This document shows positions 11,253-40,542 of a DNA stretch of 64,000 nt, piece after piece. Where the stretch lies: IMG/VR virus record IMGVR_UViG_3300027798_006580; one strand, given 5' to 3'. Every line of letters begins with the position of its first letter. Position 1 is the stretch's first letter. The notes under the pieces were generated by a model. The model searched no databases and was not told where the DNA came from. It saw only the letters and a list, made by a program, of their open reading frames with translations. The DNA is from a virus. A program made the position numbers and the translations under genes.

Positions 11253-11315
11253 GTATTAAAGCATATTACTAAATTAAGGATGGTCCACTACATTGGCCTT
11301 AGTATGCTTTAATAC
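11253..11315 (+). ncRNA. long-stem cassette RNA 1
   Basis: 15-bp stem gtattaaagcatatt/agtatgctttaatac, 33-nt loop. Confidence 0.55.
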
Positions 11316-11340
11316 ACACATTCCAAAGAGTGTGTTTAAA

Positions 11341-11934
11341 TTATTCTTCGGGATATGTTACTGTAATATTAGTATAATCGGTTCTATAATGGTGCCCGTG
11401 AAACTTATAATGCATGTGAGACCAGTTATATGGTTTTGTGGCATCAAATGGCTTTCCTATAGATAATGTTATTGGAGCAATCAGTTGACCCGAAGCTTCG
11501 TCAATTTGAATATACTTTTTTAAAGTATCCCAAGCTGACATTGCATGAATCTTGAAACTACAGCAGAAGCCAGTTAAATATCCTTGTTCAATTGCTAGCA
11601 TGCCTAGTTTAGTTTGTAACCTGCCAATTTGCATCATTGAGTGCATATCGTTATTTCTTTTTGGCGTACACAAGATTAATATAGGTGCTATTACCTGAGT
11701 ATTAGTTTTCCATGCAAACTTAGGTAATTCATATTCGTGATTAGCACTTGAATGAATTAATTTTATCTCTGATTCGTCGGTAATAACAAAACTGTTTATA
11801 TCTAACTTTTCGTGAGAAATAAAGTCATCGTGTGTGTTTTTTATTAAATTCATAAATTCACCGTCAAGCTGATTGTGAACATCAAAGGATCGTTGACATT
11901 TTTTAAATGTATCTTGTTTAATAAAATTATACAT
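11341..11934 (-). CDS. nitroreductase-like protein
   Basis: KCQRSFD N-terminus; LAIEQGYLTGFCCSF; ITLSIGKP. Confidence 0.55.
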   Translation of the reverse strand: MYNFIKQDTFKKCQRSFDVHNQLDGEFMNLIKNTHDDFISHEKLDINSFVITDESEIKLIHSSANHEYELPKFAWKTNTQVIAPILILCTPKRNNDMHSMMQIGRLQTKLGMLAIEQGYLTGFCCSFKIHAMSAWDTLKKYIQIDEASGQLIAPITLSIGKPFDATKPYNWSHMHYKFHGHHYRTDYTNITVTYPEE

Positions 11935-12256
11935 TGATTATGAACCTCGCATTAATTTCATCGTCGACGACAAAAATTTCTTTAGAATAATTAAGTTTTT
12001 TATCAGTTAAGTAGTACTCTATAGAACCTATTGCAATGCCAGTGGCGTGCCATTTTTCTATTAATTTTTGATAGTCTTCTTGATAGTTAGGGAATGGATT
12101 TACCACTCGATCTCCAAAAAAATCTAAAGTAGATGATATCTCTACTTTAATTGTAGAATTTGATATTGGAGATATGTTAGCACGAAAATATGTTTTTAAA
12201 AAACGAGCAGGGCTCCTTTTAAATATTTCGTTAAGTTCGGTGAATATCTCATTCAT
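11927..12256 (-). CDS. hypothetical protein
   Basis: ORF overlapping the nitroreductase-like start. Confidence 0.55.
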   Translation of the reverse strand: MNEIFTELNEIFKRSPARFLKTYFRANISPISNSTIKVEISSTLDFFGDRVVNPFPNYQEDYQKLIEKWHATGIAIGSIEYYLTDKKLNYSKEIFVVDDEINARFIINV

Positions 12257-12341
12257 ATAAATTATTAGTTTAATATATTTATTATTTTAATACACATATT
12301 GATCTGGCCTGGACTAAAATGTCGCAGACAGTATGTTTAAT

Positions 12342-12426
12342 GGAGATGAAGCATCAATGGTGATGCAGTGGACTGTAAATCCGCCGCCTTAGGGCACGAC
12401 TGGTTCGATCCCAGTAATCTCCACCA
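12342..12426 (+). tRNA. tRNA-Tyr (GTA)
   Basis: cloverleaf with variable arm, CCA. Confidence 0.9.
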
Positions 12427-12432
12427 AATTTA

Positions 12433-12507
12433 GGTGCGTTCATATAACGGTTATTATCTCGGATTGTCTATCCGAAGACGGGAGTTCGACTCTCCCACGC
12501 ATCGCCA
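12433..12507 (+). tRNA. tRNA-Asp (GTC)
   Basis: tcgga-TT-GTC-TA-tccga, CCA. Confidence 0.9.
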
Positions 12508-12510
12508 AGT

Positions 12511-12729
12511 TTTGTAAGTGTCAGCAAGTGAAGTCACGCTGTTCAGTATTCTTCGAAGGTACTGTCTAGTAAAAGGTTGCGGGTTCGATGCCCGACTGAT
12601 CGCCTTCGTTGGTAATCGGTATACATTATGGCGTATCAGCTGGATGAATCCCAAGTGACGTACCGACTCCCGTCCGGACTAGTATAATCGGGTGAATGGT
12701 GCTGATAACGTGGTAGCACTACTTACAAA
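12511..12729 (+). ncRNA. candidate ~220-nt structured RNA with T-loop
   Basis: closing stem tttgtaagt/acttacaaa and tcagca/tgctga; cggg-TTCGATG-cccg. Confidence 0.55.
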
Positions 12730-12737
12730 TTCAATTC

Positions 12738-12811
12738 GTATCCATAGTGTAATGGCAGCATCGCGGTCTCCAAAACCGTCAGTCTAGGTTCGAGTCCTAG
12801 TGGGTACGCCA
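12738..12811 (+). tRNA. tRNA-Trp (CCA)
   Basis: cloverleaf, CCA end. Confidence 0.95.
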
Positions 12812-12844
12812 AATAAGTAATGCCAGTGTACTAAATAATAGACT

Positions 12845-14095
12845 ATGTCAAAAACCAAATTCTCTCAAACTGTTATATGTCCAAATCCATGGACTGCAAT
12901 GTATTTTCATATCAACTCTCCAAGTCCGTGCCATATCATAAGAAACGGTCTCATGAACATGACCATGGAAGAGTATATAAACAGCGAGTGGTTAGTAGAC
13001 ATTAAACAAAAAATGATTAATGGCATACGCCCAAAAGAATGCGAAAATTGCGAAACGAAAGAAGGATTAGGTCTCAAAAGTACCAGGGGTGCTTCTTGGC
13101 GTTACTGGAACATAGGTGAAGAGCCCTATCTAGAAGATCAACCATGGTTTGACGATATAACTGTTGATACTCCCACAAAGCCTAAACGAATAGAATTGAG
13201 ATTTAGTAATTTGTGCAATATGAAATGCAGAATGTGTGACGAAACATCGAGTTCTGAAATTGCAAAAGAAAAACAAAAATACAATTTAGCCAGTAATGGT
13301 ATTCATAATCCCGATAATATCTTTTTCGAAGACACTGACGACAGCGTGTTAAAAATTACTGATGATAATATTCAAGGTTTAAAGAATATCGAATTACTAA
13401 GTGAATTGCGTAAAGTATGTTTTACTGGCGGGGAACCATTTCTAATCAAAGGTTATTATGATTATCTTGATTTTTTAATTGAACACAAATTTAACGAGCA
13501 AGTTGAATTAGAATTATTTACAAATACAAGTGTATATAATAAACTGTTTGTAGATCGTTTAATGAAATTCCCTAAAGTAGAATTTACCATGAGCATCGAC
13601 GGCGTTGGTAAAACAGCTGAATACATTAGACACGGTACAAAGTGGGACACAATTGAAAAAAATGTATTAACATTCAATTCTATGCCAAAGCCAATATTAT
13701 GCTCGATAAATGTTGCAATTTCAGCTTATGTTTTGTTAGATGTATCTAATCTGGCATTATTTTTGATGAGACTATATCGTGAAAATAATAACATATTGAT
13801 TAAATGTTATACTATATTAGTGCAAAGTCTTCGTTTTACATCTGCACCTGCACATCTCAAAGAACGTATGTTACGTGAAATTGATTTAGCAGTAGATATA
13901 TTAGACTGTCCTAATTTTGCAATATTTAGAAATGAATTGCTGAATTTACGTCCGAAGGTGGTGAAGATGTTGAATGTTTCTAGGCCGCTCGATGAGAAGA
14001 ACTTTATAGAGTTTACTCAAACATACGATAAGATTAGAAACGAATCGTTCGAGAATACATTTGGTATCCCGTTAATTTTAGATAAGGAAAAATGA
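12845..14095 (+). CDS. radical SAM protein with N-terminal SPASM/twitch-like cluster
   Basis: CNMKCRMC, FTGGEP, MSIDG; paralog of 9106. Confidence 0.9.
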   Translation: MSKTKFSQTVICPNPWTAMYFHINSPSPCHIIRNGLMNMTMEEYINSEWLVDIKQKMINGIRPKECENCETKEGLGLKSTRGASWRYWNIGEEPYLEDQPWFDDITVDTPTKPKRIELRFSNLCNMKCRMCDETSSSEIAKEKQKYNLASNGIHNPDNIFFEDTDDSVLKITDDNIQGLKNIELLSELRKVCFTGGEPFLIKGYYDYLDFLIEHKFNEQVELELFTNTSVYNKLFVDRLMKFPKVEFTMSIDGVGKTAEYIRHGTKWDTIEKNVLTFNSMPKPILCSINVAISAYVLLDVSNLALFLMRLYRENNNILIKCYTILVQSLRFTSAPAHLKERMLREIDLAVDILDCPNFAIFRNELLNLRPKVVKMLNVSRPLDEKNFIEFTQTYDKIRNESFENTFGIPLILDKEK

Positions 14096-14206
14096 CATGA
14101 AACGTTCGGCGAAACGATAGTGTCATCTTTGACCCGTATGGTCATGGATGGCACGTAAAAGAAAATTTTTACAAATCCATCCACGCTCTTGGAGCATGGA
14201 TCATAT

Positions 14207-14282
14207 GGGACTATAGCTCAGCCGGTAGAGCAGCGGACTTTTAATCCGTTGGTCGCGAGTTCGAATCTCGCTGGTCCCACCA
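14207..14282 (+). tRNA. tRNA-Lys (TTT)
   Basis: cloverleaf, CCA. Confidence 0.95.
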
Positions 14283-14358
14283 TATAGAAACACATTTTTT
14301 AACTAGGCATGCCTCTGCAAGGGTTTAACAGCAGTTTTAAGTGTGTTTCTATATGGTG
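14278..14358 (+). ncRNA. long-stem cassette RNA between tRNA-Lys and tRNA-Met
   Basis: 20-bp stem caccatatagaaacacattt/aagtgtgtttctatatggtg, 41-nt loop. Confidence 0.6.
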
Positions 14359-14429
14359 ATATAGCACAGTGGTAGTGCATCCGCTTCATACGCGGCCGGT
14401 CGTTAGTTCAAATCTAACTATCACCACCA
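14355..14429 (+). tRNA. tRNA-Met (CAT, elongator)
   Basis: loop TT-CAT-AC, paired 1:72, CCA. Confidence 0.85.
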
Positions 14430-14430
14430 T

Positions 14431-14506
14431 GGAGTTGTTAGTGTAACGGTTAACACCACGGATTGTGATTCCGTTAATACGGGTTCGATTCCCGTACGAC
14501 TCCCCA
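14431..14506 (+). tRNA. tRNA-His (GTG)
   Basis: G-1:C73, cloverleaf, CCA. Confidence 0.95.
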
Positions 14507-14515
14507 ATCAAATTT

Positions 14516-14591
14516 GCCGCAGTAGCTCCAATGGTAGAGCAGAGGATTGAAAATTCTTGTGTTACTGGTTCAAGTCCAGTTTGTGGCACCA
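14516..14591 (+). tRNA. tRNA-Phe (GAA)
   Basis: cloverleaf, CCA. Confidence 0.9.
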
Positions 14592-14597
14592 AAATTT

Positions 14598-14672
14598 ACT
14601 CGATTCGTCTATCGGTTAGGACATCTGGTTTTCAACCAGGTAAGAGCGGTTCAACTCCGCTATCGAGTACCA
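14598..14672 (+). tRNA. tRNA-Glu (TTC)
   Basis: cloverleaf, CCA. Confidence 0.9.
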
Positions 14673-14676
14673 TTTT

Positions 14677-14753
14677 AGCCTCATAGCTCAGTTGGTTAGA
14701 GCAATGTGTTGATAACGCATAGGTCCTCTGTTCGAGTCAGAGTGAGGCTACCA
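14677..14753 (+). tRNA. tRNA-Ile (GAT)
   Basis: cloverleaf, CCA. Confidence 0.95.
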
Positions 14754-14909
14754 AGTTTCGGGATAGACGATGGGTTCGAGTCCCTGTCAATCTAGTCACA
14801 GTGGGGTTAACTGTGATGACACTATAGTATGATTGATGGGTGTATAAACTTGCCTATACGAGACACGCTAGTCTATAGTACAAAGACTAGTTCCTGAAAA
14901 CCTTTTTAT

Positions 14910-14983
14910 TCCCGGGTAGTGTAGTGGCAGCACAACAGACTTTGACTCTGCTAGTATAGGTTCGATTCCTATCCCGGGTGCCA
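14910..14983 (+). tRNA. tRNA-Gln (TTG)
   Basis: cloverleaf, unpaired 1:72, G73, CCA. Confidence 0.9.
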
Positions 14984-14990
14984 AAAAAAT

Positions 14991-15066
14991 GCGGCTGTAG
15001 CTCAGTTGGTAGAGCATCACGTTGCCAACGTGAATGTCACCGGTTCGAACCCGGTTAGCCGCTCCA
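14991..15066 (+). tRNA. tRNA-Gly (GCC)
   Basis: cloverleaf, CCA. Confidence 0.95.
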
Positions 15067-15072
15067 AATAAA

Positions 15073-15160
15073 GGAAGTGTGGCAGAGTGGTCTATTGCAA
15101 CAGTCTTGAAAACTGTCGGGTCGAAAGGCTCCGTGAGTTCGAATCTCACCGCTTCCGCCA
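15073..15160 (+). tRNA. tRNA-Ser (TGA)
   Basis: long variable arm, CCA. Confidence 0.95.
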
Positions 15161-15196
15161 AAAATAAAAAAAGCATATTTGACCTTTAAATACACG

Positions 15197-16126
15197 ATGA
15201 AACAACCTATTAAAATTATTCCCAAAAAACCAGTTATAAATATATACTGGAAGCTCACTGATTTTTGTAACTTTAAATGCAATTACTGTCCTAGTTTCTT
15301 GCACAGCGGAAAGTATGCCAATGGAAAATTACCAGGCTTTCCAATTTATTCTGACATTATAATTTTTATGGACAAGCTGAAAGCTGTGGCAGCTTCCGGA
15401 ACGCATTTAAATCTTCAGTTTGGTGGTGGCGAACCGACATTGCATCCTAATTTCCTTGACATTATAAAATATATGAGTGTAGAAAATGTTTATCTAGGTG
15501 TCACTACCAACGGATCTAGAAGTGATGAATGGTGGAGCGAAGCTTTGCCATTTTTAGATAATGTAACAATGTCCCTTCATCCAGAGTTTACAAAGATAGA
15601 TAAAGTAAATAATCTGGCAAAATCTATAGTAGAGTCCGGCACTTCGATATTGTTCAACCTTAGTTGCGATCCTGACAGATGGGATACTGTATTAGAGTTA
15701 TACGACAATATAGATGATTATTTGAAACCAATGGTAACTACAAAAGTTCTAAATTATTTAGAAACAACTAGAGAAAATTATTCTTATACAGATGAACAAA
15801 CCGCATGGATTAAAAACCACATTGCGAATCCGTCATCATCCCGTGGCTTTATTAACTCAGTGATATATTTCGACGACGGATCAGCTGAAAATTTAGTCCT
15901 GGGTAAAATTACTATCAATAATTGGAATGAATTTAAAGGTTGGAAATGTAAAGTAGCTAGTCAAAGTTTAGTGATTGATTTTAACGGAAAAGTCAATGCC
16001 GGAATATGTAATGCTAAATCTCTGGGTCACATAACTGATTTTAATTTAGATACTAACTATCTAGCCTGTCCATTTAAATATTGTACTTGTCCGACTGATA
16101 TTAGGTCTGAAAAATATAAAATTTAA
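15197..16126 (+). CDS. radical SAM protein with C-terminal SPASM/twitch-like domain
   Basis: CNFKCNYC, GGGEPTLHP, VTTNGS; C-terminal WKC...GIC...CPFKYCTC. Confidence 0.9.
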   Translation: MKQPIKIIPKKPVINIYWKLTDFCNFKCNYCPSFLHSGKYANGKLPGFPIYSDIIIFMDKLKAVAASGTHLNLQFGGGEPTLHPNFLDIIKYMSVENVYLGVTTNGSRSDEWWSEALPFLDNVTMSLHPEFTKIDKVNNLAKSIVESGTSILFNLSCDPDRWDTVLELYDNIDDYLKPMVTTKVLNYLETTRENYSYTDEQTAWIKNHIANPSSSRGFINSVIYFDDGSAENLVLGKITINNWNEFKGWKCKVASQSLVIDFNGKVNAGICNAKSLGHITDFNLDTNYLACPFKYCTCPTDIRSEKYKI

Positions 16127-16130
16127 CCCG

Positions 16131-16207
16131 CGGTCCTTAACTCAATTGGATAGAGTGCCAGTCTTCGAAACTGGAAGTTGGGAGTTCGAATCTCTCAGGG
16201 CCGGCCA
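16131..16207 (+). tRNA. tRNA-Arg (TCG)
   Basis: ccagt-CT-TCG-AA-actgg, CCA. Confidence 0.9.
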
Positions 16208-16210
16208 TTA

Positions 16211-16756: not shown

Positions 16757-16785
16757 AAAAAGTATTTATACCTATAAATATAATT

Positions 16786-17325
16786 ATGCAATTTATCAAA
16801 CTTAATAAAAAATTTGATGTTAGTAATTTTACAGAAACATCATTGATCAACGAATATGCCATCAATGGCAAGGGCATTGGATTCTATAACATTGATAATT
16901 ACAATAAAGATTTGATGCTTTCGGTTATCCCTGAGAGATATAGAAAAGATTTCTTTGCAAGAGAAATGAAAATAAATTATAACATTCCTCCTCATACAGA
17001 TAGCTACGTGTATGCTACTATAAATTTTTATGTCAAAGCCGTTGATTGCCAAACAAATTTCTTTAAGAAAGTAGATGCTAGCCTAGGAGTTAAAATGACT
17101 ACTCAAACTACTGGCAGGACATTTAAAGAAGAAAATTTAGAACACGCTGGAAGTTTTGTAGCAGAATCCGGAGATGCTTGGTTATTGGATGTGTCTAGCC
17201 CACACAGCGTTAAGAATCTAAAATCCAGTACTGTTGACAGAGTTGCTCTGGTATTACAATCAAGTAACTATACCTTTGATCAGGTACACAGTATGTTGCA
17301 AGAAACTGGTTACATCGACGATTAG
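16786..17325 (+). CDS. 2OG-Fe(II)/cupin oxygenase-like protein
   Basis: PHTD...PHSVKN...RVAL. Confidence 0.7.
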   Translation: MQFIKLNKKFDVSNFTETSLINEYAINGKGIGFYNIDNYNKDLMLSVIPERYRKDFFAREMKINYNIPPHTDSYVYATINFYVKAVDCQTNFFKKVDASLGVKMTTQTTGRTFKEENLEHAGSFVAESGDAWLLDVSSPHSVKNLKSSTVDRVALVLQSSNYTFDQVHSMLQETGYIDD

Positions 17326-17873: not shown

Positions 17874-17939
17874 AATTATATTTAGTCGTCGTTTGACTCG
17901 AACATCAAAGTATAGTATAATACAAACAAAGGAAAAATA

Positions 17940-18407
17940 ATGCCATGGATTGAAAACGTAGCCGCAGATGATATCCCAAAAAGATTCCATCACGAGCCTG
18001 GTGAGAACAGTATGCTGATCAGTATTGTCGATCCAGCAAGCTGGAGACCTATACCTGCTCACAAGTTTAAAGAACAGCATAATTTTGAGTTCCTTGACAT
18101 TGAAAAGAATGACTTTGCATTAGATGAAGCCATGCGTTGTAGCCAAGAGCAGGCCAATGAATTGGTAAGACTACTGCAACACGCCAAGCTCAATAGAATG
18201 AATGTTGTCGTTCATTGCTATGCAGGCATTTGTCGTAGTGGCGCGGTCTGCGAAGTCGGAGTGATGATGGGTTTTGAAGATACTGGACGATTCCGTAGCC
18301 CTAACTTACTTGTCAAGCATCGCATGATGAAAGCACTGGGATGGACTTATGATGAAGATGAAAAGCCCAACATTGATGATTGGCGAACTTTTAAAAATAA
18401 TATATAA
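17940..18407 (+). CDS. protein-tyrosine/dual-specificity phosphatase-like protein
   Basis: HCYAGICRS (CX5R); own TTGACT-N17-TATAAT promoter at 17893-17921. Confidence 0.8.
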   Translation: MPWIENVAADDIPKRFHHEPGENSMLISIVDPASWRPIPAHKFKEQHNFEFLDIEKNDFALDEAMRCSQEQANELVRLLQHAKLNRMNVVVHCYAGICRSGAVCEVGVMMGFEDTGRFRSPNLLVKHRMMKALGWTYDEDEKPNIDDWRTFKNNI

Positions 18408-18487
18408 AGTTAGTAGTTCGGATCTTTTCGGACATAATTTATTATAAATATATTACATGAATGTGTATTTAAATATTGGAGAATTAT

Positions 18488-19731: not shown

Positions 19732-19819
19732 TAACTTATTGCATGTAATTGTTTTTCAATAATATTGACATATATCAGTGTATATGTTAAAATACAAATT
19801 CAAATGAAAGGAGCAATAT

Positions 19820-20422
19820 ATGCCCAGTGTATTTTTAGTCAGCGACACGCATTTCGGTCACACCGGAGTATGTCGCTTCACACGCAACGACGGAGTTACA
19901 AAACTTCGCCCATGGGACGATGCCGACGAAATGGACGAAGAAATGATCCGTCGTTGGAATGACAGCGTTCGACCCAACGACAAAGTTTATCACCTGGGCG
20001 ATGTTGTCATTAACCGTAAGTCATTGAAAACTCTTGCTCGTCTAAACGGCGACAAGGTGCTAATTCGTGGCAACCACGACATCTTTCGAGATGACGAGTA
20101 TAGAGAATACTTTCGAGAACTACGTGCTTACCATGTTATGAACGGAATGATACTTAGCCATATTCCTGTACACAGTGATAGCTTAGGTCGTTTTGGCACT
20201 AACATTCACGGACACTTACACGCAAATCGTGTACGTAAGGCCCGCGGAGTCGATGCACGTACCGGAGAAATCTTATACAGTGACGAACCGGATGTACGCT
20301 ATCATTGTGTTTGTGTAGAGCAAACTGACTTTGCTCCTATCTTATTTGAAGATGTTATCAAACGTATTGAAGAAGAAGGCGGAAGTGTAGGTTTTAAAAA
20401 CGGCAATAATACTATTACATAA
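19820..20422 (+). CDS. calcineurin-like phosphoesterase
   Basis: SDTHFGH, HLGD, GNHD, HGHLH; sigma70 promoter at 19765-19793. Confidence 0.9.
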   Translation: MPSVFLVSDTHFGHTGVCRFTRNDGVTKLRPWDDADEMDEEMIRRWNDSVRPNDKVYHLGDVVINRKSLKTLARLNGDKVLIRGNHDIFRDDEYREYFRELRAYHVMNGMILSHIPVHSDSLGRFGTNIHGHLHANRVRKARGVDARTGEILYSDEPDVRYHCVCVEQTDFAPILFEDVIKRIEEEGGSVGFKNGNNTIT

Positions 20423-20458
20423 TAGTATTATACAATTTTACTTGAAAGAAATATTAAA

Positions 20459-21274: not shown

Positions 21275-21320
21275 TAAGAGTTTTAATTATAAGTATTTGA
21301 TAACTAACATTGGAGAAATT

Positions 21321-21548: not shown

Positions 21549-21549
21549 T

Positions 21550-30616: not shown

Positions 30617-30628
30617 AATAGGAATAAA

Positions 30629-31441: not shown

Positions 31442-31444
31442 CTA

Positions 31445-33686: not shown

Positions 33687-33747
33687 AAATTTCCTTTCTA
33701 TTCTTCATAAATTTATTTATGATATATATTCTTAGAATTAGTTGACA

Positions 33748-34401
33748 TTAAACTAATGTTAAGAAATCTATAACCAAATGTGTTCTGGGACTTGTGCCGT
33801 TGTTTTGTACTGAATGCCGCATTAAATTATTAAGAATAAAACATTCTCCCGTGTCAAAATGACGTTTTTCGTCATTACATGTAATGTAGCTTTCGTTGTT
33901 TGTTTCTAATACCAAATGAACTCTTGTAGTTTCTTCTACAAGTCGATGGCCATCTATATGACTTTTAATTTGTGTATTCGATGTTAGTGTGTTGATTTCC
34001 ACTCCGTGTGTATAATATTGTCGCTGATTGTAATTGTTCAACGCAGTCATCATTTTTGTAGCCAATGGCACAATTAGATCTCGTACATTACGACTAAACT
34101 CCATGCGTTCAATGCTGTTATCAAGTCCAAGATGCCAAAACAGGCCGGCCCAATTGGCATCAGTGTTTTCTTCAGGATTGATACAGCCATTTGCCAATCG
34201 TATATATTTAGATTCGGCGAAGTCAGCTCTTCCTTTGATGTTCGGAGTCAGTAAATGTTGTACTGCCGGATCACTGATGTATGCTAAAAGATTGTTTATT
34301 TCTTCTTTTGTAATATCAACGGTCAGTGATTGAAAAGGAACGTTCAGCTTGACATTGGATTTCAAATAATTAAGCGTTTTAAATAATAGTCCAAATTCCA
34401 T
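33748..34401 (-). CDS. Asp/Asn beta-hydroxylase-like 2OG oxygenase
   Basis: SHID...RVHLVL...HSVQN...RTHLVIDF. Confidence 0.75.
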   Translation of the reverse strand: MEFGLLFKTLNYLKSNVKLNVPFQSLTVDITKEEINNLLAYISDPAVQHLLTPNIKGRADFAESKYIRLANGCINPEENTDANWAGLFWHLGLDNSIERMEFSRNVRDLIVPLATKMMTALNNYNQRQYYTHGVEINTLTSNTQIKSHIDGHRLVEETTRVHLVLETNNESYITCNDEKRHFDTGECFILNNLMRHSVQNNGTSPRTHLVIDFLTLV

Positions 34402-34438
34402 AACATTATTTATAACAATAAATAGACTACACTATTAA

Positions 34439-34560
34439 TTGACATAAAGTAAAAGATGTTGTATAATAGACTTTGTTAAGCAGTAATTCATTGTAGTCAT
34501 TGTTTACCAATAACTAGTTGGCCAAATCTAATTGACATAAATTGGATTCTGTGTTATAAT
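34439..34560 (+). promoter_or_regulatory. tandem sigma70 promoters (34439-34467, 34532-34560)
   Basis: two AATTGACATAAA...TATAAT promoters, each with a 17-bp spacer. Confidence 0.9.
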
Positions 34561-34584
34561 AGTTCTATGTTAAGCAATTAGCAT

Positions 34585-34596
34585 TGTTCTTTAAAA
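34585..34596 (+). promoter_or_regulatory. boxA-like antitermination site
   Basis: TGTTCTTTAAAA versus rrn boxA TGCTCTTTAACA. Confidence 0.65.
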
Positions 34597-34629
34597 ATTT
34601 ATCCCACATATGAAACGCTGTGAAGCGTC

Positions 34630-34850
34630 ATTCATATGTAAATGTATTATAGGTTACCTACACCGTTAGGTACTTAAGGCGAGGACAGTGAGGCCGCTCA
34701 CGCTCAATATAAGTATATGAAACAGGAGCGCAAGCTCTGGAGATGCGACGGAGTATGTAGGAAGTAATGACCGTACAGGCCCTTGACGGAGACGTTCCCC
34801 TGGGTAGACATAGATGTACAATGGTTCCTATAGTATTTTTACATATGAAT
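34630..34850 (+). ncRNA. candidate ~220-nt structured RNA
   Basis: closing stem attcatatgtaaa/tttacatatgaat plus tattatagg/cctatagta; gagc-GCAA-gctc; abuts tRNA-Leu. Confidence 0.55.
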
Positions 34851-34927
34851 GCCCAGGTGACGGAATTGGTATACGTGTTGGTCTTAGAAGCCAAATTTTG
34901 AGAGTTCGAGTCTCTCCTTGGGCACCA
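34851..34927 (+). tRNA. tRNA-Leu (TAG) with short variable loop
   Basis: ttggt-CT-TAG-AA-gccaa, 5-nt variable loop, A73, CCA. Confidence 0.85.
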
Positions 34928-35184
34928 AGTTTTGTGGTAAGGAAAGTAAAAGGAGAATGGGAAAGTTATTGACTAATCAATAACCGGATACCTCACCTGC
35001 CATGTTTTAATTTTGAGAGCCACATCGCCTGGACACTTCCTTTGGTAACAAAGCACTAGGTCCTGCAACCGTGGCTCTCCCCTTTTTAATTTACACTAAA
35101 GTGTGACTGCGTCACTGGCAACAGTGAGAGGCCTGTTCTAGCTACAGGACATTAGTGTGAGTTGATATCATAAGTAAGTACATT

Positions 35185-35272
35185 GGAGCATTGGCCGACC
35201 GGTTAAGGCAACAGATTGCTAATCTGTCATTCAGCAATGGGTGAGTAGGTTCGATTCCTACATGCTCCGCCA
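35185..35272 (+). tRNA. tRNA-Ser (GCT)
   Basis: long variable arm, CCA. Confidence 0.95.
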
Positions 35273-35287
35273 AAGTAAAAGGTTAAT

Positions 35288-35428
35288 ATGACAACTAACG
35301 AAATAATTGAAAAAGCCTATGGGAATATTCCTAAAGAAGTTGGCATGAGTTTCGATTTGTCATGGATACCTACACCACGTGGTGTTAAGTACTACTGGTT
35401 AGTTCTAGTAAGAAAATTTACAAGATAA
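35288..35428 (+). CDS. 46-aa hypothetical protein within tRNA array
   Basis: MTTNEIIEKAYGNIPKEV... Confidence 0.5.
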   Translation: MTTNEIIEKAYGNIPKEVGMSFDLSWIPTPRGVKYYWLVLVRKFTR

Positions 35429-35430
35429 TC

Positions 35431-35506
35431 GGGTCGTTAGCTCAGTTGGTAGAGCGTCTGCCTTACACGCAGAATGTCGGCAGTTCGAGCCTGTCACGAC
35501 CCACCA
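35431..35506 (+). tRNA. tRNA-Val (TAC)
   Basis: cloverleaf, CCA. Confidence 0.95.
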
Positions 35507-35512
35507 AATTAT

Positions 35513-35588
35513 TCCTCAGTAGCTCAGTTGGTAGAGTAGCGGACTGTTAATCCGTTGGTCGCTGGATCGTGCCCAGCCTGAGGAGCCA
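35513..35588 (+). tRNA. tRNA-Asn (GTT) with atypical T-loop
   Basis: canonical Asn body; T-loop ATCGTGC. Confidence 0.9.
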
Positions 35589-35600
35589 AGTTTTTATAAT

Positions 35601-35676
35601 GGGGGTGTAGCTCAGTTGGGAGAGCGGTTGCTTTGCAAGCAATAGGTCGCAGGTTCGATCCCTGTCTCCTCCACCA
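35601..35676 (+). tRNA. tRNA-Ala (TGC)
   Basis: G3:U70, CCA. Confidence 0.95.
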
Positions 35677-35682
35677 TTTTTC

Positions 35683-35757
35683 GGAGCGTTCGTCTATCGG
35701 TTAGGACACTGGCCTTTCACGTCGGTAAGAGGAGTTCGATTCTCCTACGCTCTACCA
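35683..35757 (+). tRNA. tRNA-Glu (TTC), second copy
   Basis: cloverleaf, CCA. Confidence 0.9.
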
Positions 35758-35760
35758 AAC

Positions 35761-36010
35761 ATGCCAAGTATCGTTGGCTACTCTGACCCAGAGGATGAAG
35801 TGCAGTGATGTGTACGGGTGGTTCGAGCAAGGGCCTGCCCCCAGCAATGGGGATGGTAAATCTGCTCCGGCGCAAGCCGCAGTTAAACCGAACTGGCGTT
35901 AGCAATACGAGAACGGTCCCTGTCGGGAAGCGGGTGGAAGGTACGTGTGATGGGTATGATAGCGTCATATCTTGATGTACTACAATTACCGCCGGGGGAT
36001 GCAGAGCATA
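35761..36010 (+). ncRNA. candidate ~250-nt GC-rich structured RNA
   Basis: three GCAA-tetraloop hairpins, a GTTCGA motif, ctctg/cagag closing helix. Confidence 0.6.
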
Positions 36011-36090
36011 TTGAAACACATTAAAGATAGGGTCGTAGCGGTTCAATGAACTTGAGTACATACCAAGGTAGTTAGTGTGTTTCAATATGT
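36006..36090 (+). ncRNA. long-stem cassette RNA
   Basis: 19-bp stem gcatattgaaacacattaa/ttagtgtgtttcaatatgt, 47-nt loop. Confidence 0.6.
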
Positions 36091-36159
36091 CCTGGCAAAA
36101 CGCAAATTGACATAAAATGACATCTATAGTATACTACAATCTTAGTACAAGGAGACATA

Positions 36160-37278
36160 ATGTCCAAAAGAGAGATAACTGTAGAAAAGTTTAAAAACAA
36201 ATTTACAGACGTAGTCCGCCATACCAAAATGGAAGTGGTGGACATCGTCATTGCACTAGAGAAAATGGATCCCACTAAGAACTTGCAGTATGTTCCTTGG
36301 CTGGCCAAACAACTAATCAATAACCAATTTAAGTTTGAGGATACAGAAAGAGTTAAAACTGTATTAACAAATTTTGACAAGCTAAAACCTCGTTTGGCTA
36401 AGCGAGACATTAACCAATTTAGTTTTTATGAGCTAGATGAGACCATAGATAAAGTTCTCAATCCTGAGATTAAGGAAGTACTAGTAACTAAAACTGTAAA
36501 AGAAGAAGGTGCCTTTCCAATTATTAAAAACACAAAGATATTGTACAATGGTCCTTTTGGCCAGTTGGCCAGTCCACAAACCGCTACCGCCGCAAGACAT
36601 TTGGGTGCAGGCACAAAGTGGTGTACTACACAGGCAACTTTCTTTAAAGACTACACTGAGACCAGTGATTTATATGTTTGGAGAGACCGCAATGGTAGCA
36701 AGTACCAATATCAGATCCAACATGACTATGCTAACAGAATTACATTATATGATGCCCGAGATAGAAGATTAGATTGGGCAGAGCAACAAAAATTTGAAGA
36801 ACATCCTGTACTTGGTCAGATTATAAAAAACCAAATAAAAGCATACACAGATTATCTGTTTAAGCAAAAGAAGGCACAACACGAGCAGGACCGACTCTAC
36901 GACATGGTCAAATATGTTTTAGATGAAACGGGCATTAACATTAAGCACGTTAAAAAGATTAACTCCTATGCTGGCGGCATGGAAGGCTTTTGTAAAGACC
37001 TGTTAGCTAAAAAGTATGACCTAATAGAGCCGCAGATGGCCCTGGGTCCACGTAGTAGCCAAGAATATGCTATGTTTATTAAAAAGGCAAGATGGGTAGA
37101 ACAGGAACCTCTCATTGCTAAACATGCAGTAAGTTGGACAATGTACAGTAGAGAAATACTGGGCACTAACAATATGACAAAGGCAGGCCGTACGCAACGA
37201 GATAAGATGCGTAAGGAAGTGTTAAAGACAATTGGTCTCAAACTTACTTCTAAAATGAAGAAACTTCCACAATGGTGA
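36160..37278 (+). CDS. hypothetical phage protein (WCT motif)
   Basis: sigma70 promoter at 36107-36135, SD aggag; AARHLGAGTKWCTT. Confidence 0.75.
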   Translation: MSKREITVEKFKNKFTDVVRHTKMEVVDIVIALEKMDPTKNLQYVPWLAKQLINNQFKFEDTERVKTVLTNFDKLKPRLAKRDINQFSFYELDETIDKVLNPEIKEVLVTKTVKEEGAFPIIKNTKILYNGPFGQLASPQTATAARHLGAGTKWCTTQATFFKDYTETSDLYVWRDRNGSKYQYQIQHDYANRITLYDARDRRLDWAEQQKFEEHPVLGQIIKNQIKAYTDYLFKQKKAQHEQDRLYDMVKYVLDETGINIKHVKKINSYAGGMEGFCKDLLAKKYDLIEPQMALGPRSSQEYAMFIKKARWVEQEPLIAKHAVSWTMYSREILGTNNMTKAGRTQRDKMRKEVLKTIGLKLTSKMKKLPQW

Positions 37279-37282
37279 TATA

Positions 37283-38107
37283 ATGGCAACAAGAAAAACA
37301 CAAACACAAACACAAACACAGACTAACATAGATCTCGACAACATCTTTAAGACAGGCACAGCCCGTCCCATCGTCAAGCACACAGAAAAACCCAAGGTTA
37401 AACCTGAGGCAAAACAAGACAATCCTAAAGTTGTAAAAGTTAACAAGGCCAGTGTTAGTAAAACATTGGCGGCCACAGGTAAAATTAAACCTACCAGGGC
37501 CATGCAGGATGTGCTAGGTAAGATGTTAGACATCAAACTTGATGCCGACCTGCCGTCATATAACGCTAGTATTGAGCAACAGCCTGTAAAGACTGTGCAA
37601 AAACAGACTAGTAGTGTTGAGCCCGAGACACCTGAGATGGTACCTGTAGTTGTAGTTAAGACTACAACATTAGCAACAACAGCAGAATACGCATTACGCA
37701 AGGCAGGCTACTTGGTACCAGACTTCCATCAAGTGGCAGCACTACCAGGTAACGTCAAAGACCAAATTAGACAGCTGGGGCGTAGTGTCTTTAAGACTAT
37801 GACAACGACACCTACTAGCAAAATCTTTGTAGTAGCTAACTTGGGCGGCATGGGTCCTAACACAGACAGAGAAGTACAAAGTGTGGCAGATTGGGTTAGA
37901 CAGCATGGCCAGGACTATGGTGATGGCAGCATTAACTTTGATAGGTCTATCCCGGGCTATGAGGCGGAGACACACATGTACACAGCCGCAGGCATTACAT
38001 GGTTGTTGGTCAAGGACTTTGCAGGACAATACATTTATGCTTGGCCAGAAAAAGAAAGTGTGTTTAGAATAGAAGTTAACAAGTTATTGCAGAAGTGCAT
38101 AACTTAG
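37283..38107 (+). CDS. hypothetical phage protein
   Basis: low-complexity TQ/K-rich N-terminus, globular C-terminus. Confidence 0.7.
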   Translation: MATRKTQTQTQTQTNIDLDNIFKTGTARPIVKHTEKPKVKPEAKQDNPKVVKVNKASVSKTLAATGKIKPTRAMQDVLGKMLDIKLDADLPSYNASIEQQPVKTVQKQTSSVEPETPEMVPVVVVKTTTLATTAEYALRKAGYLVPDFHQVAALPGNVKDQIRQLGRSVFKTMTTTPTSKIFVVANLGGMGPNTDREVQSVADWVRQHGQDYGDGSINFDRSIPGYEAETHMYTAAGITWLLVKDFAGQYIYAWPEKESVFRIEVNKLLQKCIT

Positions 38108-38114
38108 GTAAGTT

Positions 38115-38189
38115 GGTCTCATAGTATATCGGTTAGTATAATGGCCTGTCACGCCGTAGGGACGAGTTCGATTCTCGTTGAGACCGCCA
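38115..38189 (+). tRNA. tRNA-Asp (GTC), second copy
   Basis: cloverleaf, CCA. Confidence 0.95.
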
Positions 38190-38208
38190 AATTTTTAAAG
38201 GAATTAAT

Positions 38209-38406
38209 ATGTTAGTAGATAGACGAGAGTTGTTAGAACATGATGTTAGGAAGCTACACGCAGAGGCCGCAGCCATGTATTTTGACATTGTAACTCATAG
38301 TAAAGATGTACACAATGCAGAATACCAGGCTCTTAAAGAAAAAATCTCTAGCTTAGAGTTCGACCTTAATGTAGTTAATAGACTGATTGCACAAAGTCAA
38401 AAATAA
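38209..38406 (+). CDS. hypothetical protein
   Basis: SD aagga. Confidence 0.65.
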   Translation: MLVDRRELLEHDVRKLHAEAAAMYFDIVTHSKDVHNAEYQALKEKISSLEFDLNVVNRLIAQSQK

Positions 38407-38423
38407 TTTAAAGGAAATATAAA

Positions 38424-38582
38424 ATGGCATACGATCCAAGAGCAGTTAAAATCCCCAAAGCAATTAGACGCTTTGCGGCCTATGAAACAGATCCACACAA
38501 GCGTGGTGAAATTATGAGAAGTTATGTAAAAGTGTTTGAATCAGACTTGCGCGGTAACAAGCGTGGTCCAAAAGACAAGTAA
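38424..38582 (+). CDS. small basic hypothetical protein (not in ORF track)
   Basis: SD aagga; MAYDPRAVKIPKAIRRFAA... Confidence 0.6.
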   Translation: MAYDPRAVKIPKAIRRFAAYETDPHKRGEIMRSYVKVFESDLRGNKRGPKDK

Positions 38583-38904
38583 AGATTAAAGTTTTTTGGT
38601 AGTATATCCACAAGATAACTACCCGGAGAAAAGAAAGAGATGAGAACTAACACCGTTATCGCTTCATGCGATACCGAACAAATTATTGGCTGGCGCCTTG
38701 AAAACGCCTCGTGCCTGTGTGCTCCAACCCTCGGGATATGACAGAATTGTGTCTTGCTCCTGGATATACACAGGTCTCTGTGCCTTGTGCATTGTGACTT
38801 GTCAGGATTTTAGTTAAAGCTAATCCGCATGTTATTTGTCCAGTTGGTTACTTTCTTTCTTGACTCTGTTTTTATTTTGTTGTATAATTATTTAAAGGAA
38901 ATAT

Positions 38905-39474
38905 ATGAATATCAGTCTACGTAAAGCCAGTGTATTGCAGAACAGTATCAATGATGTCGTCAAAGGCATCGACCTTAAAGGTCAAGTTAGTCTAACGGAA
39001 TTCCATGATCCAATCATGGAAATTTATAAAGCTACGACTGTGTTTAAAACTAATTTGAATCGTCGAGATTCTTTGGTTAAAGCACTGTATGACATTCGCA
39101 AGCAAGTCAGCGCAGTTAACAGTCGTGTGGGCATAGACGACAAACTCACAGAGATTGCTGGTCTTGAAAAGCAAATTCAGAACTACACAGAGTTGTCTGG
39201 CTTTGCAGTTCGCGAACAAGAAGCAGTTGTGTTGGGCAAGTTGGACAAGATTAAAAATCGTAAAGAAGAAGGTCGCAGTATCTACGGTTACGAAAGCACA
39301 GTGGCCACTAGTGTGTTCACTGAAGAAGACATCAAGGGCTTTAAAGTTTTTGTAAATCTGGCCAAGAAAGCTAAACAACGTCTTCAAGACGAAGTTCTGG
39401 AATTGAATGTGCGTACTGACATCGGTCTAAGTGTAGACACGGTTCAAATATTGAAGTCAGAAGAATTATTATAA
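38905..39474 (+). CDS. coiled-coil hypothetical protein
   Basis: promoter TTGACT-N17-TATAAT at 38860-38888, SD aagga. Confidence 0.75.
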   Translation: MNISLRKASVLQNSINDVVKGIDLKGQVSLTEFHDPIMEIYKATTVFKTNLNRRDSLVKALYDIRKQVSAVNSRVGIDDKLTEIAGLEKQIQNYTELSGFAVREQEAVVLGKLDKIKNRKEEGRSIYGYESTVATSVFTEEDIKGFKVFVNLAKKAKQRLQDEVLELNVRTDIGLSVDTVQILKSEELL

Positions 39475-40002
39475 GTATTGTTCGAACATTTCAATTGATT
39501 CTGCCATAGTTAATCTAGTATTATCTTGTTTTTTTAATACTAAACTTAGGCAGTATCTGGGTTCTTCAAAATTATGTATGTTATGAGGAATACCAACTTG
39601 AACTATACTAGGAAAATTTACTGGCTGTTTATCGATTAAGTCAACTTGGTCGATCTTATAATCTATATAAAAACTATCGGTTGAGTTGAGTTCTGCACTA
39701 TTCGATATATTAGGTTTTTGTTTCCACCAATACATTAAACTGTTTTTGCCGCCGAATACATAATTGAGTTTGATATAATCTCCGCCTGTGTCATCGAGAT
39801 GTATTGTACTAAAACGAAAAGGACGATTGTAAAATAATTCTACCCGGCCAATGGTTAGATTTAAAGTTTTTAAAAATAAAATTAAATCATTGTTAATATC
39901 GTCAATTGATATTTTAATATGATTGTGTGTGCCATATGAGTTTATATTTAAATCCTTTCTCAGAGGACTTATGTCTAGATTTATATTAAGACAATTAATC
40001 AT
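39469..40002 (-). CDS. 2OG-Fe(II)/cupin oxygenase-like protein
   Basis: IHLD...PHNIHN...RYCLSL; start reassigned to MINCL. Confidence 0.7.
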   Translation of the reverse strand: MINCLNINLDISPLRKDLNINSYGTHNHIKISIDDINNDLILFLKTLNLTIGRVELFYNRPFRFSTIHLDDTGGDYIKLNYVFGGKNSLMYWWKQKPNISNSAELNSTDSFYIDYKIDQVDLIDKQPVNFPSIVQVGIPHNIHNFEEPRYCLSLVLKKQDNTRLTMAESIEMFEQYL

Positions 40003-40014
40003 AAATATATTTAT

Positions 40015-40090
40015 CGCGGGGTACGTCAGTTGGTAGACTATCAGGCTCATAACCTGGAAGACGGAGGTTCGAGTCCTTCCCCCGCAACCA
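40015..40090 (+). tRNA. initiator tRNA-fMet (CAT)
   Basis: C1:A72 mismatch, cgcgggg acceptor, CCA. Confidence 0.9.
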
Positions 40091-40091
40091 A

Positions 40092-40256
40092 TTATAAACT
40101 GTGAATATAATCTAAAGCAGAATCTAAGTTAGTAAAGTACAGCATTTCAAAGTCATTGCTAAAAATATCTTTGACAATGATATAGCAGATGCCTTGCTTG
40201 CTTAGACTTACATGAAAATGTAGGCCTGCTTCGGTGACAATGTCATAGGATTGCAT
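40092..40256 (-). CDS. 54-aa hypothetical protein (not in ORF track)
   Basis: TAAATA-N5-ATG; MQSYDIVTEAGLHFHV... Confidence 0.5.
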   Translation of the reverse strand: MQSYDIVTEAGLHFHVSLSKQGICYIIVKDIFSNDFEMLYFTNLDSALDYIHSL

Positions 40257-40476
40257 AGTAGTATTTAATCAAAGAAAACCCGGTTACACTTTGACGTCTA
40301 AAGTGGGTAGGGCAGTTACCATAAAGAGTGCTAGGTATGTAGTGCTATGACCATCCGTGCTCTGTTGTGGAGTGGCGGGAACGCATTAGGTAAGGTATAA
40401 CACCTGCCCAAAAGAATAAATGTTATGGACAGAGTAACAGCTCAGTTTAGGGCCTATGTGGTGTAGGTAGCTAAAC

Positions 40477-40542
40477 ACTTTATTATAGCATATTGTAATC
40501 AAATGAGTGTGCAATGTCTGCTGAAGTGTGCTATAATAAAGT
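40477..40542 (+). ncRNA. long-stem cassette RNA directly before tRNA-Gly
   Basis: 18-bp stem actttattatagcatatt/agtgtgctataataaagt, 30-nt loop. Confidence 0.6.

Follow-up and report, generated by a model that had tools for sequence, protein, structure and literature searches.

Long hairpins cut out of precursor RNA are well described at the boundaries of stable RNA units. In rRNA operons, at the T7 early R sites and in the valU and lysT operons of Escherichia coli, a long stem is excised by RNase III or RNase P, letting its neighbors mature, and the hairpins right behind the valU and lysT tRNAs are removed by RNase P (PMC4176162). The intervening segment of permuted (two-piece) tmRNA is likewise missing from the mature molecule and is removed by tRNA-processing enzymes (PMC11915505). 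At the DNA level, PeSL-mediated shuffling has been documented for T4-like phages (PMC2839356, PMC4122927). The T4 tRNA cluster also encodes two small non-tRNA RNAs, species 1 and 2 (rnaC and rnaD), which are cotranscribed and processed with the tRNAs. A further point of reference is provided by Y RNAs, whose stem is read by Ro60.

Here, we analyzed a window of 64,000 nucleotides of viral DNA (IMG/VR record IMGVR_UViG_3300027798_006580). The stems among its tRNA genes belong to a widespread RNA hairpin family that is not represented in Rfam and that large uncultured phages carry in their tRNA gene arrays. The stem usually begins at a tRNA CCA end, most often that of tRNA-Lys, and such a hairpin most likely marks a cut site in a long precursor RNA.

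Six hairpins in a phage tRNA array

A sequence-only reading had proposed six inverted repeats with a common core among the tRNA genes. All six are real; they lie within 4 nt of where that reading placed them, in the tRNA array and exclusively on the + (tRNA) strand, and, folded as RNA, they reach z-scores between -2.8 and -5.9 relative to dinucleotide shuffles. They are listed below with their neighbors and, where matched, with scores from R1, a covariance model for which 50 members from other phages were used.

11253..11315, + strand: hairpin 1, a divergent member; 15-bp stem, 33-nt loop; fold z-score -4.98; R1 23 bits, E 0.002
11316..11336, + strand: mini hairpin; 8-bp core stem, 6-nt loop, no cargo; fold z-score -3.81
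12294..12336, + strand: hairpin 3; core-only 8-bp stem, 29-nt loop; no R1 match
12342..12423, + strand: tRNA-Tyr(GUA)-like gene downstream of hairpin 3; Rfam RF00005, 36 bits; missed by ARAGORN
14207..14282, + strand: tRNA-Lys(UUU); hairpin 4 begins with the 4-5 nt of its discriminator-CCA
14278..14358, + strand: hairpin 4, canonical; 20-bp stem, 43-nt loop; R1 57.2 bits, E 9e-13; fold z-score -4.30
14355..14429, + strand: tRNA-Met(CAU); its first nt can pair with the tRNA-Lys CCA at the base of hairpin 4
35883..36005, + strand: conserved RNA-like element of ~125 nt that stops at the start of hairpin 5
36002..36094, + strand: hairpin 5, canonical; 19-bp stem plus outer pairs, 51-nt loop; R1 48.1 bits, E 3e-10; fold z-score -5.91
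36107..36135, + strand: near-consensus sigma-70-type promoter, 11/12 hexamer matches; serves gene 36160-37278
40477..40542, + strand: hairpin 6; 18-bp stem including two U-G pairs, 30-nt loop; fold z-score -3.20; no R1 match
40545..40618, + strand: tRNA-Gly(UCC), downstream of hairpin 6

The core CAYAUU/AGURUG lies beside the loop in all six copies and, as the sequence-only reading held, always with the same U-G wobble, which is the second pair from the loop; the fourth pair shows Y-R covariation. With one core mismatch tolerated and at least 3 further pairs needed, a scan of the window returned six + strand matches, or four distinct hairpins, versus a mean of 1.5 and a maximum of 4 in Markov shuffles scanned on both strands. 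R1 matched 14279-14357 (57 bits), 36005-36091 (48 bits) and 11250-11318, whereas 12294-12336 and 40477-40542 were undetected at E<=5 and the mini copy was likewise not matched. The copies are thus unequal: 14278-14358 and 36002-36094 are canonical and 11253-11315 is divergent, while 11316-11336, 12294-12336 and 40477-40542 have just the core in common with the family. Hairpin 6 shows the family design with diverged arms. Stems of 15-20 bp in hairpins 1, 4, 5 and 6 provide the roughly two-turn double-stranded stem of RNase III sites; those of hairpin 3 and the mini copy measure 8 bp.

Three hairpins sit against tRNA 5' ends, as had been claimed: 12294-12336 ends 5 nt before the tRNA-Tyr-like gene, 14278-14358 overlaps tRNA-Met by 4 nt, and 40477-40542 ends 2 nt before tRNA-Gly. 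Hairpin 4 takes up the entire spacer between tRNA-Lys(UUU), which it overlaps by 5 nt, and tRNA-Met; it is the only window copy whose stem starts on ACCA, the others following non-tRNA sequence. Hairpin 1 closes a + strand unit and is faced by two convergent - strand ORFs, and an AT-rich divergent intergenic region lies just before hairpin 3. Hairpin 5 ends a tRNA block, and the promoter begins 13-17 nt past it; the element before it is 79-96% identical in five related loci (L087, L170, L160, L180 and L171) and has no Rfam match at E<=1. The window hairpins lack U tails, in agreement with the sequence-only reading, and the terminator scan lists none of them. With no U tract, loops of 29-51 nt, and tRNA (often immediately) or non-U sequence next, they are not intrinsic (Rho-independent) terminators.

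A nearly invariant stem with an exchangeable top

The family comprises about 90 members in 59 viral contigs; among 80 pattern-fetched bacterial contigs, a single member was found, on a 1.5-kb contig of a metagenome bin. Rfam 15 holds no matching family: the hairpins had no non-tRNA match over the whole window at the gathering score or over window positions 34000-42000 at E<=1, and they were unmatched in seven related loci at E<=0.1 or E<=0.05. The consensus arms, ACCAUAUnnAAACACAUU before the loop and AGUGUGUUUnnAUAUGGU after it, build a nearly invariant 18-bp stem with an exchangeable top. Median arm identity is 93%, versus 71% for the adjacent tRNA-Lys. Sixteen of the 18 pairs are almost fixed in sequence and two central positions are free to vary, each arm having 7 and 9 conserved bp that flank the 2 free bp. 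Family-wide, the second pair from the loop is U-G (89%) or C-G (11%), the 10th pair is mismatched in about 65% of members, and the free position beside this mismatch covaries between the arms (AU, UA, GC). Along the helix, 94% of cells are paired and double changes occur in 11 of the 18 pairs, a degree of covariation equaled by none of 500 shuffles. Wobble changes (U-G to C-G; C-G to U-A via U-G) are of the kind seen in RNA from the + strand.

The tops behave differently from the arms. Loops range from 27 to 98 nt, the 96 compared fall into 80 clusters, and their identity between members is at the shuffled level. They have 48% GC, versus 41% in the loci, and their folding does not, on average, exceed that of shuffles (mean z -0.39), most loops being unstructured. 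In near-identical phages, loops are swapped exactly between the arms, with flanks 90-97% identical, which bears out the proposed anatomy of a constant handle with variable cargo. The loop differs from that of relatives in four of five window hairpins. In the 97%-identical relative G006, hairpins 1 and 4 retain unchanged arms around unrelated loops of 98 and 38 nt, the mini hairpin is kept with another hexaloop (L066 16112-16131), and a tRNA-like gene takes the position of hairpin 3, homology stopping at 12295. The L182 ortholog of hairpin 6 preserves the stem by compensatory changes and carries an unrelated 62-nt loop between flanks 90-96% identical, and the hairpin 5 loop is retained (98%) in L171. 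G003 and G004 share one loop, whose context differs between the two. Some cargo classes recur across phages; they show a compensatory pair and vary in an apical insert. T-loop motifs are present in 13 of 92 loops, where 0.9 would be expected, and often stack on the 7-bp core in the fashion of a tRNA.

Cassette exchange could also be read as a DNA-level process, in which the inverted arms are recombination or mobility sites that shuffle short cassettes and tRNA genes, after the manner of PeSL cassettes or of the terminal inverted repeats that bound a mobile element with cargo, and the RNA hairpin is a by-product; we regard this as improbable. It is favored by the exact end of homology at the arms in near-identical phages, the loop shared by G003 and G004, the gene that replaces hairpin 3 in G006, the resemblance of the arm to a bipartite site (7 + 9 conserved bp around 2 free bp), and the HNH endonuclease genes that recur in these arrays. 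However, recombination at the arms is expected under any model and therefore does not support this reading specifically. Against it, orientation relative to the tRNA strand is constant, the wobble pairs are those of a + strand RNA, the embedded promoter of PeSLs is missing, and covariation of the free position beside the mismatch indicates that pairing is needed. A miniature inverted-repeat transposable element does not fit the 80 unrelated clusters among 96 loops, such elements not having unrelated interiors, nor the ACCA/UGGU flanks, which are inverted rather than a direct target duplication.

Proposed excision from tRNA precursors

Position ties the family to stable RNAs. A family hairpin follows 44 of 63 tRNA-Lys(UUU) genes; 49 of 92 members begin on the NCCA of an annotated tRNA and several more on unannotated tRNA-like 3' ends, and about 40 finish at most 20 nt before, or 1-4 nt inside, the next tRNA. 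All lie on the tRNA strand and orientation is never flipped. Two relatives that are nearly complete (354 and 320 kb) have all their R1 matches at E<=2e-4 within a tRNA zone of ~22 kb, with one weak match outside it (E 0.027). Relatives also place a family hairpin ~5 nt or less after GOLLD RNA. In L085, a family hairpin is the exact intervening sequence of a permuted tmRNA, from ACCA to the 5' G of the coding piece. Since this segment is excised, release through tRNA processing, as the sequence-only reading suggested, is plausible (PMC11915505).

The best reading, to which we give about an even chance, is that of a processing hairpin that is excised, has an exchangeable top and punctuates the long transcripts from which tRNAs and other stable RNAs mature. 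The 18-20 bp stem (ACCAUAUnnAAACACAUU with AGUGUGUUUnnAUAUGGU) would join the upstream discriminator-CCA to the leader of the downstream RNA and in some cases also to that RNA's first bases. Host RNA-processing endonucleases would then excise it: RNase P would cut the 5' end of the downstream tRNA, and the CCA-side cut might be made by RNase P, as on E. coli post-tRNA hairpins, or within the stem by RNase III or another enzyme specific for double-stranded RNA. Stems of 18-20 bp suit RNase III-type enzymes, and T7 RNase III sites have an internal mismatch near midstem, as does the family stem. Excision would liberate both neighbors and a tRNA-sized stem-loop, which we infer could accumulate, and recombination between the conserved arms would swap its top among phages as a cassette. 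That the stem matters by itself follows from cargo-less members (window 11316-11336 and the full-length L146 7722-7761), the covariation, and the compensatory changes in L182.

A tRNA cannot be charged while its CCA end stays paired and extended; the stem behind tRNA-Lys must therefore be removed. This argues against passive, uncut structures acting as stability caps that block 3' exonucleases or as insulators that separate the folding of neighboring tRNAs, an explanation that we hold very unlikely together with its variant that the three core-only window copies are chance AT-rich hairpins. In its favor are the stable stems at unit boundaries and the escape of the three weak copies from R1. 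Nevertheless, insulators need no sequence conservation beyond that of tRNA, hairpin 6 is conserved through compensatory changes, and the mini copy is retained in G006.

Pure processing has its own difficulties. The conservation of the arms above tRNA-Lys (93% versus 71%) and the two retained non-Watson-Crick positions point to a sequence-specific reader; processing enzymes that read shape would not require such conservation, which counts against the processing reading. A host enzyme has to be assumed, since the phages carry no RNase III gene, and loops of 27-98 nt with balanced composition and conserved cargo classes are not explained. An alternative is that the released stem-loops are functional small RNAs in a ribonucleoprotein. 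A phage or host protein would read the invariant stem, including the U-G pair and the mismatch, as Ro60 does with Y RNA, and the tops (tRNA-like modules, conserved motifs or unique single strands) would take part in phage-host conflict as decoys, tethers or guides. We consider this possible but doubtful. With 16 of 18 pairs nearly fixed, the arms resemble the outcome of sequence selection, not of recent spread; the loops are hypervariable, classes of them recur in different phages, and the enrichment in T-loops is reminiscent of the tRNA-like domain of YrlA. Furthermore, 60 of 76 tRNA-linked hairpins come after tRNA-Lys(UUU), Gln(UUG) or Glu(UUC), tRNAs that carry a wobble 2-thiouridine and are targets of several anticodon nucleases.

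The searches for a partner and for loop targets speak against it. Genes for TROVE/Ro60, TerD, RNase III and PF04308 are absent from the two nearly complete relatives, which gives no backing to the protein-recognized handle that had been proposed; PF05731 (TROVE) is absent from G000, G001, G002, G003 and G006, two of which are at least 92% complete, and no gene cluster is shared by more than 15 of the 59 loci. The guide, antisense or decoy roles once envisaged for the loops did not find support either: complementarity of the window loops to 77 kb of the genome is not above chance, two window loops are absent elsewhere in the viral collection, two (one of them also in the viral search) are absent from the metagenome collection, and matches in 3.1 Mb of DNA are confined to hairpin-like or tRNA T-arm contexts. 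Most loops are also unstructured, and members without cargo exist. Most tops look like passengers, and a few conserved classes may have functions of their own. The other option of the sequence-only reading, RNase III-type processing signals, is better supported than these roles.

Relation to described RNA systems

Y RNAs, especially bacterial YrlA bound to Ro60/Rsr (RF02553), resemble the family in having ends paired in a conserved stem with a noncanonical position, a variable top module that is sometimes tRNA-like with a T-arm, and a location near phage tRNA genes. However, the relatives lack a TROVE/Ro60 gene, Rfam Y RNA models do not match, the stem sequence is another one, and the family hairpin is instead embedded between tRNAs and begins on their CCA. 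T4 rnaC bears a T-arm, like some family cargo loops, but the highest score that R1 reached across the T4 tRNA cluster with filters off was 7.8 bits (E 2), i.e., no homology to rnaC/rnaD, and T4 has two unique RNAs rather than a family built of handle and cassette.

PeSLs share with the family short conserved stem-loop motifs in hyperplastic regions where recombination swaps unrelated sequence among close relatives (PMC2839356, PMC4122927). They are promoter-terminator composites flanking protein genes, whereas the family hairpins lie between stable RNA genes without promoter or U tract, and the swapped part is the hairpin's own loop. Identity with PeSLs was rejected for the window hairpins, which have no strong promoter-like site within or fused to them; consensus promoters are separate, e.g., 36107-36135.

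The intervening sequence of permuted tmRNA (RF01850, RF04321; PMC11915505) is in L085 identical to a family hairpin, running from a CCA 3' end to a mature 5' end. In the window and at most loci, however, the family is flanked by separate tRNAs and not by halves of one RNA, and its stem is, to the extent tested, no part of the tmRNA consensus in Rfam. RNase III and RNase P processing hairpins offer the same long stem at an RNA unit boundary, of a length fit for a double-strand-specific enzyme. The family, for which we infer a comparable cleavage, differs from them in that distant phages have a stem that is nearly invariant in sequence as well as in shape, and in that its members start on CCA and carry a hypervariable top of 27-98 nt.

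Hairpins of the window and their family

The source of the window is a large uncultured phage, represented by a 77-kb record that the collection estimates to be ~22% complete. On its plus strand the window carries 27 tRNA genes (26 called by ARAGORN and one tRNA-Tyr-like gene recognized by Rfam only), and a promoter scan of the window placed consensus sigma-70-type promoters ahead of the tRNA blocks. Three radical SAM genes are interspersed among the tRNA genes. A SPASM domain is present in the first, and related jumbo phages have relatives of the second in their tRNA zones.

Hairpins and neighboring genes of the window
9106-10521, plus strand: radical SAM gene
11253-11315, plus strand: hairpin 1
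11316-11336, plus strand: mini copy
12294-12336, plus strand: hairpin 3
12342-12423, plus strand: tRNA-Tyr(GUA)-like gene (Rfam, 36 bits; missed by ARAGORN; odd D region, CCA end)
12845-14095, plus strand: radical SAM gene
14278-14358, plus strand: hairpin 4
15179-16126, plus strand: radical SAM gene
36002-36094, plus strand: hairpin 5
40477-40542, plus strand: hairpin 6

All stems described in the sequence-only reading are present, on the plus strand only, and share a CAYAUU/AGURUG core with a U-G wobble beside the loop and Y-R covariation. They are more stable than shuffles (fold z -2.8 to -5.9), and a terminator scan found that none resembles an intrinsic terminator, in agreement with that reading. 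Three hairpins adjoin tRNA 5' ends, as had also been noticed, and hairpin 4 occupies the entire tRNA-Lys(UUU)-tRNA-Met spacer and takes in the ACCA of tRNA-Lys. A non-coding-looking stretch 5' of hairpin 6 (40290-40476, plus strand), ~90% identical in the viral locus L182, may be another small RNA.

Relatives were obtained via the neighboring radical SAM gene, and the viral collection was then searched by pattern scan, with a family set seeded with the exact core pattern. After removal of exact duplicates, the family comprises 94 stems, 92 of them with full flanks; they occupy the tRNA strand in 59 loci with up to 32 tRNAs each. Its consensus is ACCAUAUnnAAACACAUU, a loop, and AGUGUGUUUnnAUAUGGU; the loop spans 4-83 nt (median 49) in the 92 scanned members. 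Counted from the loop, pair 2 is U-G for 89% of the family and C-G for the other 11%, pair 10 is non-canonical in ~65% (A-C, C-A, C-C, or U-U), and the neighbor of pair 10 covaries (AU, UA, GC). In a helix test on 50 members, 94% of cells were paired and double changes occurred at 11 of 18 pairs, of which the outer nine alone are unbiased because the core was demanded by the search; no shuffle or slid register came close to this pairing. The proposal that the window copies form one family was borne out in part by R1, a covariance model built from 50 members in other phages: three copies scored 57, 48, and 23 bits, and the other three were missed, their tie to the family resting on design and core only. 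Every confident R1 match in the nearly complete genomes of two relatives (354 and 320 kb) falls within the tRNA zone and on the tRNA strand. Rfam 15 holds no family matching the hairpins, and literature searches, not aimed directly at the motif, returned no published description of them.

As a control, the same pattern was applied to bacterial genome contigs, 80 of which were fetched. These yielded chance-like stems, save for a Haemophilus prophage element and one 1.5-kb metagenome-bin contig, which bears a member and is misbinned. The former is a separate, well-conserved 69-nt hairpin of Haemophilus prophage-like records (L095, L103, L107, L210, and ~15 more loci) that shares the 9-bp core and the U-G pair but not the outer arms; its loop is conserved, tRNAs are absent from its surroundings, and deposited phages gave no match to it. 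Another small hairpin RNA probably lies in the phage tRNA array of L100 (6904-6957, plus strand), scoring 40.4 bits against the 41.5-bit threshold of the Rfam family Dicty_Class_I_RNA.

Three other identities were rejected. A late-promoter reading of the A-rich arm fails since the variable positions are the two inside the would-be box. By inspection, a coding reading has an ATG available in no arm variant other than that whose free positions are GC, with no ribosome-binding site, and tandem guide arrays (CRISPR, TIGR) do not fit dispersed copies whose conserved parts pair across a variable part and whose loops range from 4 to 98 nt.

Loop exchange on conserved arms

The constant stem with a variable top, as first proposed from the sequence, stands as far as structure goes: the arms are conserved and the loops unrelated. 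The 96 loops fall into 80 clusters, 68 of them singletons. For 30 hairpins located behind tRNA-Lys(UUU), median identity is 93% in the arms, 71% in the tRNA, and 52% in the loops, the last being the shuffled value. Between the window and G006, a relative with 97% identical flanks, homology stops exactly at the arms; the loop of hairpin 1 measures 33 nt in the window and 98 nt in G006, that of hairpin 4 43 and 38 nt, respectively, with unrelated sequences, and the position of hairpin 3 is taken in G006 by a tRNA-like gene.

Gene in place of hairpin 3
L066 (G006) 17090-17185, plus strand: tRNA-like gene; extra region of 22 nt, unusual anticodon loop

Elsewhere, L182 preserves the stem of hairpin 6 by compensatory changes with a different loop, L171 retains the loop of hairpin 5, and two related phage genomes (G003 and G004) have an identical loop in different contexts. 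Such swapping would be explained by a recombination cassette acting at the DNA level, similar to PeSLs, but this leaves unexplained why orientation is fixed, why the wobbles follow an RNA-type pattern, and why a free position covaries, and we regard it as improbable.

The loops are richer in GC than their loci (48% versus 41%) and as a class unstructured (mean z -0.39). Of the 92 loops, 13 contain a T-loop motif where 0.9 would be expected, and the motif is often set against the 7-bp core in the fashion of a tRNA. A few cargo classes are shared by different phages, one of them showing both a compensatory pair and an apical insert that varies, and members without cargo exist. One class (L148 2973-3051, L123, and L150 10281-10355) has a self-complementary 8-mer that is still palindromic after a double change from GUGGCCAC to GUGUACAC, which hints at loop-loop pairing or dimerization.

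Position between stable RNAs and candidate roles

The stem starts with the NCCA of an annotated tRNA in 49 of 92 members, and further members start on unannotated tRNA-like 3' ends; in ~40 members the 3' end lies within 20 nt of the next tRNA or reaches a few bases into it. Within the family loci (L061-L189), a hairpin directly follows 76 of 1456 distinct tRNA genes, and these are unevenly distributed: 44 of 63 tRNA-Lys(UUU) genes (70%), 9 of 54 for tRNA-Gln(UUG) (17%), 7 of 65 for tRNA-Glu(UUC) (11%), and less than 10% for any other tRNA. The Fisher p for this link to tRNA identity, ~1e-43, overstates the evidence because tRNA genes share ancestry. These three tRNAs are the ones whose wobble position carries 2-thiouridine, and they are attacked by several anticodon nucleases.

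Other stable RNAs have the same neighbor. In L085, a permuted tmRNA has exactly the hairpin as its intervening sequence, set between the ACCA of the acceptor piece and the initial G of the coding piece; this segment is missing from mature tmRNA, being cut away by tRNA-processing enzymes (PMC11915505). GOLLD RNA is followed within ~5 nt by a family hairpin in four relatives, and hairpin 5 begins at the end of a conserved element in the window.

Non-tRNA units
L062 4406-4872, plus strand, and L067 8775-9237, minus strand: GOLLD RNA (Rfam RF02032; 199 and 212 bits in these two scanned loci)
Window 35883-36005, plus strand: conserved ~125-nt element without Rfam match

The hairpin therefore lies at boundaries between several kinds of stable RNA unit. 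GOLLD RNA, also found in G002 and G004, has an embedded tRNA and sits in the tRNA zone of the related 320-354 kb phages; the loop of the hairpin after it is not alike between phages. The ~125-nt element recurs with 79-96% identity in five further viral loci, four of which have something other than a family hairpin behind it.

These positions suggest that the hairpins are processing stems excised between stable RNA units, a reading to which we give an even chance. A tRNA with a paired, extended CCA is unusable, which makes removal of the stem behind tRNA-Lys necessary, and the tmRNA of L085 offers a case where excision of this same element is known. Cleavage at the downstream tRNA would fall to RNase P. 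The CCA side might be cut by RNase P, which removes hairpins directly 3' of tRNAs in Escherichia coli (PMC4176162), or by RNase III, for which 18-20 bp of stem interrupted midway by a mismatch would be suitable; a host enzyme is assumed because the phages encode no RNase III. Excision leaves unexplained why the stem sequence is more conserved than that of the tRNA, why two non-Watson-Crick positions are fixed, and why the loops are long and of balanced composition. All three favor the sequence-only proposal of a sequence-specific stem reader, perhaps with functional cargo, but neither a partner protein nor loop targets were found, and we consider this proposal doubtful.

As to targets, loop complementarity to the 77-kb record did not exceed chance; exact 21-22-mers had no match in viral_contigs (hairpins 1 and 4) or metagenome_contigs (hairpins 4 and 3), and in 3.1 Mb of DNA, mostly related phage loci, matches were limited to hairpin-like contexts or tRNA T-arm similarity. 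As to partners, genes for TROVE/Ro60, RNase III, TerD, and PF04308 were absent from G000-G003 and G006, and gene clustering in the 59 family loci, covering 5-20 kb each, gave no candidate and no cluster in more than 15 loci. The commonest clusters were metallophosphoesterase, RNase H-like protein (missing in this clade), dual-specificity phosphatase, Rpb6-like protein, and HNH endonucleases; PHROGs added nothing.

Window genes with relatives in hairpin-bearing loci
17940-18407, plus strand: dual-specificity-phosphatase-like gene (11 of 59 loci)
19820-20422, plus strand: metallophosphoesterase gene (15 of 59 loci)

The products of these two genes may be RNA end-healing enzymes. It is conceivable, albeit unlikely, that the family is an RNA cassette system in which a protein would read the nearly invariant stem with its fixed U-G pair and mismatch at mid-stem, while selection diversifies the hypervariable, largely single-stranded tops to serve as decoys, tethers, or guides in conflicts about tRNAs; the tops would be swapped by arm recombination and co-made with tRNA-Lys(UUU), tRNA-Gln(UUG), and tRNA-Glu(UUC), the targets of anticodon nucleases.

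Large phages with 25-50 tRNA genes need to convert very long precursors to working tRNAs, a process that to our knowledge has hardly been studied beyond T4, and the family offers a concrete, testable signal for it. Even as a mere processing mark, the hairpin would improve annotation of phage tRNA arrays and explain unannotated gaps among RNA genes; with functional tops, it would be a novel type of phage small RNA, modular and evolving as fast as cassettes are exchanged.

Comparison with known systems

T4 rnaC and rnaD, the classical examples of non-tRNA RNAs encoded in a phage tRNA cluster, are not homologous to the family, and their region of T4 gave no match. Y RNAs have the handle-plus-module design in common with the hairpins, but Ro60 is absent in the relatives examined. 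PeSLs of the recombination-cassette type are alike in their swapping (PMC2839356, PMC4122927). Closest in kind are the processing stems of stable-RNA operons together with the tmRNA intervening sequence, to which the family adds an invariant stem sequence, a clamp on the CCA end, a tie to tRNA-Lys, tRNA-Gln, and tRNA-Glu, and a cassette-like top as new features.
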